Source: a virus
Taxonomy: Duplodnaviria; Heunggongvirae; Uroviricota; Caudoviricetes
Virus record (IMG/VR): IMGVR_UViG_3300013104_000003
Coordinates: 1-26,955 of that record
Direction: 5' to 3' (one strand)
DNA: 26,955 bases
The position numbers were made by a program, and so were the translations under genes. Shown one piece after another: positions 1,629 through 8,805 of the stretch. Under the pieces are notes generated by a model. That model ran no database searches, was not told the origin of the DNA, and worked only from the letters and a program-made list of their open reading frames with translations. How positions within the stretch are numbered: the first letter of the stretch is position 1; every line of letters starts with the position of its first letter.

Positions 1629-3101
1629 CTATTGGGTAAATGGATTAGTTCGTGTTAGATTTGCGGACAACAGTCCAGAAGTGAAGTTTGGAATAATTTG
1701 TTTTTGTGCTAATATCATAAAGCCATCACTGCACACGTCCACAAGATCATCATGACCATTTGCGCCAGACTTTCTTTCTCCCGTGAATGTCTCCAATTCT
1801 TTGTAAAAGAATCCAAGCTCACTGAAAACCTTGTTCTCAAAGTCTGTCCCACAATTCTTCAAGATTCTAATCCCCCCATTCATACACATAGACGCGAAGG
1901 GTCTGAATCTATCAACTTTACTAGAATTCGCACGCATAGTTCTTACAAAGAATCCTTCTGCTGAGATTTCTCTTGCAAGCATTGTTGTTGCAGCTTTCGA
2001 TGCGGGGTTAGGATCAAGTGGTAAAACAATATCTACTTTGCTCCCATCCCTTTGTGCGTTCTCTACAATGAAAGCTTTCCAATCACCAAAACGAATTCGT
2101 GTCCGTTGAACATCGTGGATGAAATAAGTACCATCCTTCATTTTTGAAATCTTAATGCAAGCCGTGTAATCTGGATCATATGAGCTATCAGATGACTTCA
2201 GAGTGCCAGCGACATCATATGCCCTAACAGTCTTAACAATATCACTCCAAGCCGGCTCTTGATCTTCTTCTTTGAACCAGTGGCGTTTTATAAGACCTTG
2301 TCCATCTGGCCTAGCCTCCCAATTCCCGTATAAAAGAATTTCTTTCTCGATACGCGGCAAACCTTGAAGAAAAGCAATATAGCTTTTCTCAATATGTGGG
2401 TTATCGTATACCGATGCGGAAATAAAACGGAAAGAAAGAGGAGTAAGATCGGGGTATCGCTCTTCTAATTCTTCTTTTGTATCTGCCCAAAACATTTCAT
2501 TATCTAGGCGAACAAACCAGCGAATTATACCCTGTTTTGCAGGGTCAGGACGACCAAATAATTCATGACCTTCTGGGTAGAGATACCAATCAACATACTT
2601 CCTAACCCAACTATCTGGGTCTGGGTTCATTGTAGCGCGCATGTTTGGCTTCATATTAGCCTTTGTACGCAAACGAGAAAGAATGTAGTTGAACTGGGAT
2701 TCTTCAAACTGACAAAGTTCCTCCATTACGCAACTGGAGATTTGAGCACCTTGAAAGTTATCTGTGTCATCCACACGTTCGAAATGAGAAAAGAAAATTT
2801 CTGCATCTGAGCTTGTAATAATCTTTAAATCTTTAATTCTTACTCTACAGTCTGGATCTAACAATTTATAAAGTTGTTTTGCTTCGTCCCAAACAGCACC
2901 CGGCTTAAGTAGCATCGGTGTAGTTCGACGTAATGTTAGTCCTCTATAAAGGGGATCGTGCATATATTTGGCGTGATGGGCAAGTCCTGCCCAAGTTTTT
3001 CCTCCGCCAGCCTGACCCCCGTAGAAACAGATGTCCACCCAATCAGGCGTGGACAAAAACATCGCTTGTGGTTTGCTGGCAGGCGCGACTACATTTGTCA
3101 A
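1629..3101 (-). CDS. terL: Terminase large subunit
   Basis: Walker A YGGQAGGGKT, Walker B-like VMEEL, coupling motif ATMNP, C-terminal nuclease RAYDVAG...HDDLVD; TTG start with GAGG RBS. Confidence 0.95.
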   Translation of the reverse strand: MTNVVAPASKPQAMFLSTPDWVDICFYGGQAGGGKTWAGLAHHAKYMHDPLYRGLTLRRTTPMLLKPGAVWDEAKQLYKLLDPDCRVRIKDLKIITSSDAEIFFSHFERVDDTDNFQGAQISSCVMEELCQFEESQFNYILSRLRTKANMKPNMRATMNPDPDSWVRKYVDWYLYPEGHELFGRPDPAKQGIIRWFVRLDNEMFWADTKEELEERYPDLTPLSFRFISASVYDNPHIEKSYIAFLQGLPRIEKEILLYGNWEARPDGQGLIKRHWFKEEDQEPAWSDIVKTVRAYDVAGTLKSSDSSYDPDYTACIKISKMKDGTYFIHDVQRTRIRFGDWKAFIVENAQRDGSKVDIVLPLDPNPASKAATTMLAREISAEGFFVRTMRANSSKVDRFRPFASMCMNGGIRILKNCGTDFENKVFSELGFFYKELETFTGERKSGANGHDDLVDVCSDGFMILAQKQIIPNFTSGLLSANLTRTNPFTQ

Positions 3102-4218
3102 AGACGCTTACCTCAATTTGTTCTATATTGGTTTTAACTTCCAACCACCTCTCTTTGTTTTCGAGAGCGTTAGATACAGAATTTCTGGCCACTCCGTAAA
3201 GATTTGCTAGAAACTTTTGTTCTACAAAACCAGATCGCCACAATATAAGAGCTTCTGTTACATCAACCAGAGAAAATTTTGCTTTGCTGTTATACTTATG
3301 CTTTTCTACATTAAGTAACCTTAAAGTGGTTTGAATTTTATCTCTGTTTTCTTCTCTATTAGACATCCAATCAGCGATATATTCTTGTTCAATATCCTTT
3401 AAAGTCTTATGTAAAGATTTTTCAATTTCTTCAATGTAATAGTCTGAATTATTATTCAAGGCTTTTACAATAAAATCTGGATTTTGTGAGGGATCAAAAT
3501 CATCCGAAAATCTTTCAATCATTGTTTTGAAGTAAGTCCCGCTAAAATAAAGGTCTGAGACTTTTTGTATTTTTGTTGAAAAATCTTTCGGGCCGGTCTT
3601 ATCAGAGCGTTGCCAGAAGTCTTTATATACATGAAAACTCAACCAATCTTTCAACTCACCTTTGAATCGAAAGGCTGGAAAAACTGAACCTATATTTATA
3701 AGAAATGGCTGAATGTCGTCTTGTTTCCTGTTGAATTGAGACATATATTTAGTATTACTCAACTTCCAGTTAATAAGACGTTTTCTGCGTTCTGTTTCCT
3801 TCCGGGTTGCTTTAATCCTTTCCATAACTTCTGGAGGATGTGTCACACCGAACATGGGGTTGTTTTCACCAGAGCATTGTACACTAACAGCTTTAGAATA
3901 CTCTTCACGTAGCTTAGAATAAATTTTAGAATTAATACCTACGTGACTATTGCCTGCGATATCATTTGTCCAACGTGAACTCATGATATGTGCAGCTCTC
4001 ATCAAACTGATGTTTTGAGGATTAGCTATCCACAAGAGCATGTGGGCGATGAAGTGCTCTCTTCCAGAGAAGAGTACAAAATTAGAAGCTTCATTTGTTC
4101 CTCCAATACATACTGGGACAATGTGATGAGCTTCTGTGTAGAAATCTATTTTTGATTTATCAAGACCACGAACTTTAGCTTTTGCTACAAGATCATTATA
4201 AATTTTACTGTAATTCAA
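3043..4218 (-). CDS. Free-standing HNH homing endonuclease with NUMOD3 motif (Mob-like)
   Basis: EAHHIVPVCIGGTNEASNFVLFSGREHFIAHMLLW HNH core; SGENNPMFGVTH NUMOD3-like repeat; overlaps the terL 5' end by 59 nt. Confidence 0.85.
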   Translation of the reverse strand: MNYSKIYNDLVAKAKVRGLDKSKIDFYTEAHHIVPVCIGGTNEASNFVLFSGREHFIAHMLLWIANPQNISLMRAAHIMSSRWTNDIAGNSHVGINSKIYSKLREEYSKAVSVQCSGENNPMFGVTHPPEVMERIKATRKETERRKRLINWKLSNTKYMSQFNRKQDDIQPFLINIGSVFPAFRFKGELKDWLSFHVYKDFWQRSDKTGPKDFSTKIQKVSDLYFSGTYFKTMIERFSDDFDPSQNPDFIVKALNNNSDYYIEEIEKSLHKTLKDIEQEYIADWMSNREENRDKIQTTLRLLNVEKHKYNSKAKFSLVDVTEALILWRSGFVEQKFLANLYGVARNSVSNALENKERWLEVKTNIEQIEVSVFDKCSRACQQTTSDVFVHA

Positions 4219-7100: not shown

Positions 7101-7440
7101 ACAATCCTATTTTATTTTTATATTAGGGATTGTCTTGTTCTGAGGAATTATAGCCTGTAGACAGACAACACAGGCTTTTAGTGGGGCAGCCTCGTCTGCT
7201 TTGAAGAAATCAATTATACTTCATTAAATAATTGACTATAGTATAGTTGACTGATGCCACGCTTACCTGCATTCAGTCGTGGAGTCCATAGTGACTCCCT
7301 CTCCGCTCACTAGTCTTTCCTAGCAGTCATTTATTCGCTATCCGCCAGAATAGCTGGGTGAGAACTAGGCAGTTCCCGATACCAAGCCGAAGCCTGATTC
7401 TATGTCACCTAAACACAACATTTAGGTTGAGATGTTTAGA
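7101..7440 (-). ncRNA. Putative structured non-coding RNA (C)
   Basis: About 11 back-to-back hairpins including a C(UUCG)G tetraloop (7383-7396); stem irregularities read as G-U wobbles on the minus strand; no ORF. Confidence 0.6.
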
Positions 7441-7454
7441 TAATGTAACAAATG

Positions 7455-7859
7455 TTACTCATCATCTTCGTCTGGAGTAAACACCAAACTCAGACGTGGA
7501 CGCAATTCACTTTTAATCTCTTCAGGAGTCTGCTCTTCAGGCTCACGCTTACCTTCCATACGAGCCTTGAAGTTAGAGATTTCATCGGCGTTTGCAGCCT
7601 TCTCAACACTTACAATGGAATTGATAACCCATTTAGCACTTGCTACAGAATCAGCGTTCACTTCTTCATTTTTTAGGCTTTTATCAATAAGCGCAAGGGC
7701 AATATCTTCACGAGTACGAAGCTTATCTGCAAGTTCACGAAGTTGAGACTTTTTAATACGAACCTTTGAATTTCCTTTGGTGTTACGGTTACTACGTTCA
7801 CCTTGGAACTGTGTTTCTTTCTGCTTTGCAGTTTGTTTATCTTTTGTCAAACCTGCCAT
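7455..7859 (-). CDS. Putative terminase small subunit
   Basis: 134 aa; basic N-terminus with QFQGERSNRNTKG resembling the F..G.SGNP.G motif of TerS proteins; helical core; RPRLSL-acidic C-terminus; upstream of terL on the same strand. Confidence 0.55.
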   Translation of the reverse strand: MAGLTKDKQTAKQKETQFQGERSNRNTKGNSKVRIKKSQLRELADKLRTREDIALALIDKSLKNEEVNADSVASAKWVINSIVSVEKAANADEISNFKARMEGKREPEEQTPEEIKSELRPRLSLVFTPDEDDE

Positions 7860-7869
7860 AATTATGCAC

Positions 7870-8211
7870 CTTTATGCAAAAATTCATAATTTAATATTTC
7901 TTAAATACACTCTAATACAGAATATCTGTGTTCACTACGTGAGGAATGTATTTAAGAAAGCTCACCTGAAATCGTTAGGAGAGGAACGACCAGATGGGCA
8001 AATAACCAAACAACCCGAGGAGAGAGAGAGGAAGAAAGATTGTTTGGTTGAGGAGCACATACCCTATGTTATCGGAGGATTTTACTTATGGTATGTGTGG
8101 AGAAATTGGTATTCCCTTGTCTCACCCTACAGCAACAAACACATGGAAATTGCTGGGGGATATTTGCTACGCAAATGCACATCACCAAGGGAAATCTTTT
8201 TAACACCAAAC
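7870..8211 (-). ncRNA. Putative structured RNA/leader (B) with CU-rich loops
   Basis: Five helical domains with 8-12 bp stems; loops and linkers carry UCC/UCCUC; starts just downstream of a consensus promoter. Confidence 0.6.
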
Positions 8212-8217
8212 AGAGAT

Positions 8218-8247
8218 AGTATAACATCCATATATCTATTTTGTCAA
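8218..8247 (-). promoter_or_regulatory. Sigma70-like promoter TTGACA-N18-TATACT with extended -10 (TG)
   Basis: Read directly: ttgacaaaatagatatatggatgttatact. Confidence 0.8.
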
Positions 8248-8274
8248 TAGATATTCACAATTGAATCAATATTT

Positions 8275-8805
8275 CTAATCAAAATACGAATATTCTTCTT
8301 GAAGCTCTGATAATTGATCCATAACTTGATTGTAGCGCATCTTAGACATAAAGTCGTCTTGACAAGAATTGTACTTTTTGTTGTTGCAAGACTTGCAAAG
8401 CAACTGAAGATTTTTCACAGAATTTGAAGAAATTATTCCTACTGGTCGGATATGATCAATTTCGAAGGCTACATCATCAAAAGATACAAAACATGCTGCG
8501 CATTCATTGCTCTGAATTTCTAACAGATATCGAATGTCTTCTGGTTTGAAGTTTTCAATTTCTTCATGTCCTTGTTTTGAAAATCTAGCTTTTGCAAAAT
8601 AATTCCGCTTCTTGATCCGTTCGTCAAAATTATCTTCCGTCAGGTAAGAATTTCTTTCTTCATGCCATTCTCGAAGTCTTTTACTACGTTCGATAGATTT
8701 TGTATCGCTTTTAAACTCTTCGTTATATTCAGAGATACAGTCTTTACATCGTCCGCTGTTTGTGTGCTCTGAATAGTGACCTTTACTGCATTCTTTTAGT
8801 TCCAC
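8275..8805 (-). CDS. HNH endonuclease (Zn-binding, McrA/gp74-like)
   Basis: CAAC...EIDHIRPV...NSVKNLQLLCKSCNNKK; N-terminal C..GH...RC..C finger; GTG start with AGGTG RBS. Confidence 0.85.
   Translation of the reverse strand: MELKECSKGHYSEHTNSGRCKDCISEYNEEFKSDTKSIERSKRLREWHEERNSYLTEDNFDERIKKRNYFAKARFSKQGHEEIENFKPEDIRYLLEIQSNECAACFVSFDDVAFEIDHIRPVGIISSNSVKNLQLLCKSCNNKKYNSCQDDFMSKMRYNQVMDQLSELQEEYSYFD

Follow-up and report, generated by a model that had tools for sequence, protein, structure and literature searches.

The cuckoo RNAs of alphaproteobacteria (ar14/C14, CcsR1-4 and RcsR1) consist of two to four adjacent hairpins with anti-Shine-Dalgarno (anti-SD)-like CCUCCUCCC loops and freely varying stems (PMC4615179), and processing of a longer transcript yields the CcsR RNAs (PMC8034643). 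C-rich loops also pair with ribosome-binding sites in RNAIII and the Rsa RNAs of Staphylococcus aureus, LhrC of Listeria, 6C of Mycobacterium and sX13 of Xanthomonas (PMC2790875, PMC4132741, PMC6486639, PMC3771888). The several C-rich loops per RNA in this class allow multivalent, largely chaperone-independent pairing. A short motif is likewise repeated in many hairpin loops of one RNA in CsrB, RsmY and RsmZ, where the transcribed strand carries GGA and binds CsrA/RsmA. The stable RNAs C and D of phage T4, whose function is unknown, are embedded in a tRNA operon and processed from it; to our knowledge they carry no repeated anti-SD-like loop motif.

The RNA described here, RNA B of an uncultured phage, has a core that is closest in design to the cuckoo family (RSs0680/CcsR1-4, RcsR1, ar14/C14; RF02344). 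In both, adjacent hairpins of ~24-50 nt are joined by short linkers and display the same anti-SD-like pyrimidine motif in each loop on variable stems. Processing from a longer transcript, which we infer for RNA B, is a further likeness, and the known cuckoo hosts are soil and rhizosphere bacteria, which matches the habitat of the phage's sample. However, the loops read CUCUCC/CCUCUCCU in RNA B and CCUCCUCCC in the cuckoo RNAs; the latter have no multiloop, whereas RNA B adds a hairpin, H0, and a terminal three-way junction; and the cuckoo locus is alphaproteobacterial and usually lies beside a DUF1127 gene (PMC4615179, PMC8034643), which is not the case for RNA B. Unlike the cuckoo RNAs, RNA B is phage-borne, single-copy and tRNA-linked. 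The RF02344 model gave no match at its gathering score or at E <= 10, including a search of the 336-nt region with lax filters, nor any match at gathering score in nine relatives. RNA B is cuckoo-like in its working at most; it is not a member of that family, and no homology was detected. With RNAIII, RsaE/Rsa, LhrC, 6C and sX13 it shares C/U-rich loops complementary to G-rich SD sequences, but these RNAs are unrelated in sequence, are chromosomal regulators of stress or virulence, are shorter and simpler (except RNAIII), and use UCCC or CCCC motifs where RNA B has CUCUCC. It differs from CsrB, RsmY and RsmZ in that its transcribed strand shows the complement of GGA. The likeness to T4 RNAs C and D is that of a phage-encoded RNA embedded in a tRNA operon.

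The stretch of DNA analysed (the window, 26,955 nt) is the first part of a complete genome of 90,955 nt with 39.8% G+C and direct terminal repeats (G000), and DNA of this phage is present in a rhizosphere metagenome (public sequencing runs). Its large terminase is at most 49% identical to homologues from cultured phages of Pseudomonas and other Gammaproteobacteria, the closest being that of Pseudomonas phage vB_PsaM_M1 (48.7% identity). RNA B lies inside a 415-nt gap without ORFs. The features of the locus are as follows, R1 being the family's covariance model described below.

8275-8805, minus strand: HNH endonuclease gene, one flank of the ORF-free gap.
8218-8247, minus strand: sigma-70-type promoter, TTGACA, 18-nt spacer with TG (extended -10), TATACT; predicted start near 8211.
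8107-8193, minus strand: tRNA-like three-way junction with an 8-bp acceptor-like stem (8112-8119/8186-8193), two inner hairpins and a 3' tail UACCA.
7896-8107, minus strand: RNA B proper; R1 score 87.1 bits, E 1e-20, the sole match in the 90,955-nt genome.
7455-7859, minus strand: gene of a 134-aa protein (gp134), the other flank of the gap, starting 36 nt past RNA B.
7101-7440, minus strand: RNA C, non-coding, downstream of the gp134 gene; structured and conserved in at least 17 related loci.
7777-8250, plus strand: 157-aa open frame on the purine-rich strand, judged spurious.

The 157-aa frame was rejected as a gene: it matched no protein family, four related loci (L004, L005, L008 and L009) have no counterpart of at least 70 aa across the RNA on the same strand, and the indel and covariation pattern of the region is of the RNA type. 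Beyond gp134, a tail-fibre-like gene, a homing endonuclease, the large terminase and the portal follow on the same strand. The homing-endonuclease gene (3043-4218, minus) lies immediately upstream of the full-length large terminase gene (1629-3101, minus; TTG start) and overlaps it by 59 nt, an arrangement also present in Pseudomonas phage vB_PsaM_M1. The HNH endonuclease gene is flanked by two promoter-like sites and directly precedes the RNA B promoter. As its place is taken by tRNAs or other DNA in relatives, it has the appearance of a mobile insertion.

The original prediction saw five stems here, and minimum-free-energy folds of the minus strand recovered all of them.

8112-8119/8186-8193, minus strand: claimed stem, present in the minimum-free-energy fold.
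8056-8063/8090-8097, minus strand: claimed stem, likewise present.
8004-8015/8038-8049, minus strand: claimed stem, likewise present.
7972-7976/7985-7989, minus strand: claimed stem, likewise present.
7898-7909/7947-7958, minus strand: claimed stem, likewise present.

The region folds better than dinucleotide shuffles on both strands (z -3.6 minus, -3.2 plus). The prediction also gave 12 TCC (minus) or GGA (plus) triplets in 7943-8192 against about 3 expected; the count is exact, while the expectation has to be raised to 4-5.6. Local mononucleotide shuffles gave 5.6 +/- 2.0 (P = 0.003), and 12 or more triplets occur in 0.5% of the 250-nt windows across the whole window, so that the enrichment taken alone is only moderate. 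The motifs are indeed mostly unpaired, with a mean unpaired probability of 0.89 at CUCC/CCUC positions against 0.29 elsewhere, and of 0.93 at loop-motif positions against 0.33 elsewhere. Anti-SD-like CU motifs do stand in nearly every loop, as had been proposed; the single RNA that was assumed to carry them has to be divided into two modules, 8107-8193 and 7896-8107.

To find relatives, gp134 was used as a handle, and 40 related loci were fetched from IMG/VR. Their upstream gaps show almost no nucleotide similarity by BLAST. Most of these loci carry three pyrimidine runs with CUCC or CCUC, spaced 35-45 nt apart and 120-500 nt upstream of the gp134 gene. The aligned relatives define an RNA of ~200-260 nt, and the covariance model R1 was built from the alignment of the family. 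It matches 34 loci with E values of 1e-10 to 1e-49. Five genomes that seemed to have no RNA B beside gp134 each hold exactly one copy 1-3 kb further upstream. A pattern scan of viral contigs yielded 28 matches, 16 of them on contigs new to the model; R1 confirmed four of these, and the other 12 were chance matches. The family, spread over ~40 uncultured soil phages, thereby comprises 38 related IMG/VR phage contigs besides the window, with one copy per genome in all six genomes that were searched whole, the window's included.

Outside this clade, a motif scan of all viral contigs combined with R1 found no member. BLAST against 50,697 cultured-phage records gave no match for the window region or for the best-scoring family member, and R1 gave no significant match on vB_PsaM_M1. 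No Rfam family matches RNA B or the copies in relatives, where only the tRNAs were matched. A 5' GUUUCACC that resembles the 3' end of RNase P RNA, for which Rfam gave no RNase P match, and two RNA B ends that resemble the type I-F CRISPR repeat are too short to carry weight. The original prediction knew of no such phage element, and the literature bears this out: we found no paper on a phage RNA of this design, and a catalogue of ~8,500 candidate structured RNAs from IMG/VR (PMC10690425) may include RNA B unnamed.

From 5' to 3', RNA B consists of the H0 hairpin, two or three CU-loop hairpins and a terminal three-way junction. In the window these are placed as follows.

8056-8097, minus strand: H0 hairpin (model helix 1), with compensatory changes in 5/5 pairs.
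8004-8049, minus strand: CU-loop hairpin with a 13-bp stem and the 20-nt loop UUCUUCCUCUCUCUCUCCUC (8017-8036).
7960-7999, minus strand: H3 hairpin with the near-invariant 8-nt loop CCUCUCCU (7977-7984).
7897-7958, minus strand: H4 terminal three-way junction, outer stem UUUCUUAAAUACA/UGUAUUUAAGAAA, inner hairpins 7932-7942 and 7917-7929.

Across the family, the 5' end is a single-stranded AGUUUCACC followed by H0, whose tip carries AUCCUCCG in the window phage and its nearest relative. Each of the hairpins H1-H3 in relatives has a CU-rich loop; the stems differ freely, and the loops keep CUCUCC/CCUCUCCU. Two or three CU-loop hairpins are present in all 34 members, two in the subclade of the window and three in most relatives. 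CUCC occurs in 34/34 H2 and H3 loops and CUCUCC in 29/34 H3 loops, being invariant in the H3 loop of a 27-sequence alignment. H4 is closed family-wide by UUUCUNAA.../...UUNAGAAA, and its helices (4-6) are paired to 92-94% in the outer stem and one inner hairpin and to 80% in the other. The composition of RNA B is C-rich and G-poor (C 24%, G 16%). Within the first ~40 nt past RNA B, seven relatives (L046, L026, L045, L019, L025, L051 and L032) share a conserved block, AAUAUUUCUCAUGUGUUUU, which is absent from the window; in at least two of them (L019 and L032) a tRNA T-arm motif sequence follows the block.

Base pairing in this structure is maintained by compensatory change. In the model-based alignment, 85.8% of cells form standard pairs, against 65% in column shuffles and ~42% with slid partners. 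Compensatory changes were found in 35 of the 39 modelled pairs, and the covariation score of 0.528 (0.199 in shuffles) was reached by none of 500 shuffles. As the lengths of the H2 and H3 stems are too variable for column alignment, seven loop-adjacent pairs were tested with cognate and non-cognate arms: cognate arms paired to 87-90% and non-cognate arms to 43-46%, with H3 at 87% against 46%, at an arm identity between sequences of 32-35%, which is near random. The check on relatives that the original prediction had asked for thus shows conserved loop motifs on covarying stems. Taken together, 7896-8107 on the minus strand is almost certainly a genuine conserved structured RNA with functionally constrained CUCUCC loops.

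The minus strand had been favoured from the outset, and the family agrees. The loop-bearing stems contain 73 G-U pairs against 9 A-C mismatches, and U-G and G-U columns in H4 helices 4 and 6 are kept in 17 and 20 sequences. Of the two strands, the one with the CU loops has the more stable fold in 24 of 27 members (P = 6e-5). Flanking tRNA genes and downstream genes lie on the same strand as RNA B, and near-consensus sigma-70 promoters occur within 900 nt upstream on that strand in 26/34 relatives, against 6/34 on the other. The G-U excess, the fold stability and the orientation of tRNAs and promoters all point the same way, and the RNA is therefore the CU-displaying minus strand. In the window, the proposed minus-strand promoter (TTGACA-18-(TG)TATACT, 8247-8218) matches the consensus at 11/12 positions, and the weaker plus-strand promoter suggested at 7883-7911 was not picked up by the promoter scan.

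Between promoter and RNA B lies the element at 8107-8193, which folds into an acceptor-like stem with only two arms and a 3' ACCA. This is not a canonical cloverleaf, and neither ARAGORN nor the Rfam tRNA model called it a tRNA. ARAGORN called no tRNA anywhere in the 90,955-nt genome, which has nevertheless retained the tRNA-like element and RNA B. In seven relatives, the CCA of a canonical tRNA ends exactly at model position 1 of RNA B, and other relatives have at the same position an acceptor-stem structure ending in NCCA that is not called by ARAGORN. Such NCCA structures stand directly before RNA B at L037:2143-2227 and L026:~1860-1947 and in L052 and L038, and a T-arm-like GGAGUUCGAUACUUCC is present in some. 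These structures are possibly tRNAs of a non-canonical type, or else processing mimics. The element at 8107-8193 is likely the signal for the cut that defines where RNA B begins, and release of the RNA B 5' end by tRNA-type 3' processing is the simplest reading.

On the 3' side, a tRNA begins 12 nt past RNA B in one relative, and further tRNA-like pieces follow it in others, which indicates a discrete excised product. In relatives the same island contains between one and six tRNAs, which lie on either side of the gp134 gene and are less faithfully retained than the non-coding RNAs. A distance of 15-55 nt separates the end of RNA B from the structural module's first ORF in most genomes, whatever gene that is, and no terminator was found after RNA B. 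A different ORF follows RNA B in four genomes (G001-G003 and G005). In G001-G003, RNA B and the gp134 gene are separated by the insertion of a gene of 835-898 aa (MILSGTLLTPTG...), whose product is probably a tail fibre or spike; the start region of this gene (CAGUAGGGACAAUAUG) is of a weak, GGAG-less SD type, like that of the gp134 gene.

The neighbouring protein and RNA were examined as possible partners. gp134 is a conserved 134-aa protein with a basic N-terminus, a helical core and an acidic tail; it has no Pfam, PHROG or PDB match, and tblastn against the 50,697 cultured-phage records gave none. A role as TerS or RNA-binding protein was rejected on the basis of a helical model (pLDDT 64) with no PDB sequence or fold match, and gp134 is neither a demonstrable small terminase nor an evident RNA-binding partner. 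In RNA C, a single-stranded GU/GC-GGAGA(A/G)G lies between two hairpins, the first of which has a GNRA-like loop; AGAG and another conserved hairpin follow. In the window the motif reads GGAGAGG (7298-7304). The purine tract of RNA C is complementary to the RNA B loops, and pairing is feasible in all cases (-8 to -18 kcal/mol). Specific pairing of each RNA B with its own RNA C was rejected, as cognate combinations had no advantage over non-cognate ones (permutation P = 0.17). RNA C does not occur in all relatives, and its pairing with RNA B is only a lead.

The loops' UCUCCU is complementary to the SD consensus of the phage, AGGAGA, with GGAGA present in 50/184 upstream regions, and it stands in accessible loops, as in the base-pairing class of anti-SD small RNAs; in G000, 33/192 start regions hold a perfect loop complement of at least 7 nt. 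The different ORFs that follow RNA B and the tRNAs that flank it on both sides in some relatives favour a discrete, trans-acting product. There is precedent in multi-hairpin small RNAs whose identical anti-SD-like loops pair with ribosome-binding sites (PMC4615179, PMC2790875, PMC4132741, PMC6486639, PMC3771888).

We therefore propose, tentatively and as the best single mechanism, that RNA B acts in trans by pairing with SD-type purine tracts. Host RNA polymerase would transcribe it from the promoter at 8247-8218 together with the tRNA-like element, and its 5' end would most likely be created by tRNA-type 3' processing just past the CCA of that element. The product would fold into H0, two CU-loop hairpins (three in most relatives) and the terminal three-way junction, with the unpaired CUCUCC/CCUCUCCU loops as its presumed working parts. 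These would pair in trans with GGAG(A)G purine tracts, mainly in the SD regions of mRNAs, and RNA B would then be a multivalent anti-SD mimic that lowers or times translation initiation. A target search, for which genes were called in five complete genomes, orthologs grouped and complementarity to each genome's own loops compared, found no ortholog group that keeps extended loop complementarity across the five; the matches are generic SDs. No significant enrichment among SDs was seen for GGAGAG, which complements CUCUCC exactly; of 86 GGAG in start regions, 12 continue as GGAGAG, against 8% genome-wide, which is not convincing. It is not obvious what a phage would gain from an RNA whose best pairing is with the SD type of its own genes, and a protein or RNP partner would account equally well for the strict invariance of CUCUCC in place of the stronger CCUCC and for the conserved H0 and three-way junction. 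A more far-reaching version, somewhat doubtful in our view, would make RNA B an RNA-only takeover factor from the tRNA island of a lytic phage: punctuated by tRNA, its multivalent anti-SD-mimic loops would capture SDs in bulk, or a host factor that reads pyrimidines or the anti-SD (S1, Rho, Era), and so reprogram host gene expression early in infection.

That the loops bind protein is the premise of a rather unlikely alternative, in which RNA B is a sponge or decoy that titrates or recruits a protein with specificity for pyrimidines or for the anti-SD. Possible partners are ribosomal protein S1, Rho with its primary sites for YC dinucleotides, and KH-domain factors such as Era, which binds the 16S 3' end; an rRNA-targeting toxin or a phage protein are further candidates. 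Known protein-titrating RNAs are built in this way, with a single invariant motif shown in several accessible loops on stems that vary, the motif is kept more strictly than SD pairing requires, and the five-genome search produced no conserved mRNA target; the conserved H0 and three-way-junction domains suggest an RNP scaffold, and the C-rich, G-poor composition also suits a sponge. We know, however, of no bacterial sponge that uses CU loops, and the adjacent gp134 has no RNA-binding fold and is not always adjacent. RNA B might instead stay on the downstream mRNA as a cis-acting leader that controls the structural-gene operon. Where the early tRNA unit gives way to the late genes, it could attenuate transcription by loading Rho, or act as an antiterminator; it could also stabilise the mRNA or offer the first ORF an S1-dependent standby platform for ribosomes. 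A leader role of any of these kinds is clearly unlikely. RNA B does end ~15-55 nt before the first same-strand structural ORF in nearly every relative, with no terminator in between, that ORF has an atypically weak SD (UAGGNA or AAGGUG, no GGAG), and unpaired C-rich loops resemble rut features; but tRNAs or other non-coding elements separate RNA B from the next ORF by 110-300 nt in some relatives, the loops are not complementary to the downstream SD, and rut or standby sites normally have no invariant hexamers on covarying hairpins.

The two remaining explanations, both raised in the original prediction, read the locus on the other strand or as DNA. Repeated AGGAGAGG boxes could form a pac/cos or other protein-binding site beside a small terminase, and two to three copies of an 8-bp motif do lie ~40 bp apart near packaging genes. 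A purely DNA-level repeat of this kind is highly improbable, because the compensatory stem changes and the strong G-U bias are RNA signatures; moreover, RNA B lies 1-3 kb from gp134 in several genomes, and gp134 is not demonstrably TerS. A second, DNA-level use of the region besides its RNA role is possible. Scarcely tenable is a plus-strand multi-GGA RNA that titrates CsrA/RsmA. The loops of that strand read AGGAGAGG and contain A(N)GGA, and the strand folds well in the window, but the 73 G-U pairs would turn into A-C mismatches, the family folds worse on it, the U-G and G-U columns of helices 4 and 6 are conserved, and tRNAs, promoters and genes all lie on the opposite strand.

Few regulatory RNAs are known to be encoded by phages, and the structure of hardly any of them has been defined. 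RNA B is a covariation-supported, single-copy core gene across a clade of ~90-kb phages, retained even where all tRNA genes have been lost from a member, and its CUCUCC loop motif can be directly read and mutated. If the loops bind SD sequences, RNA B would be a case of RNA-based viral tuning or seizure of translation initiation; with protein as the ligand, it would represent a type of sponge not known before. Under both readings, the 5' tRNA-like element would clearly exemplify phage tRNA punctuation that releases a non-tRNA product. The takeover-factor reading, if true, would make RNA B the first phage-encoded counterpart of the cuckoo- and RNAIII-type bacterial regulators. RNA B represents a regulator design that is known from bacteria and new for phages.
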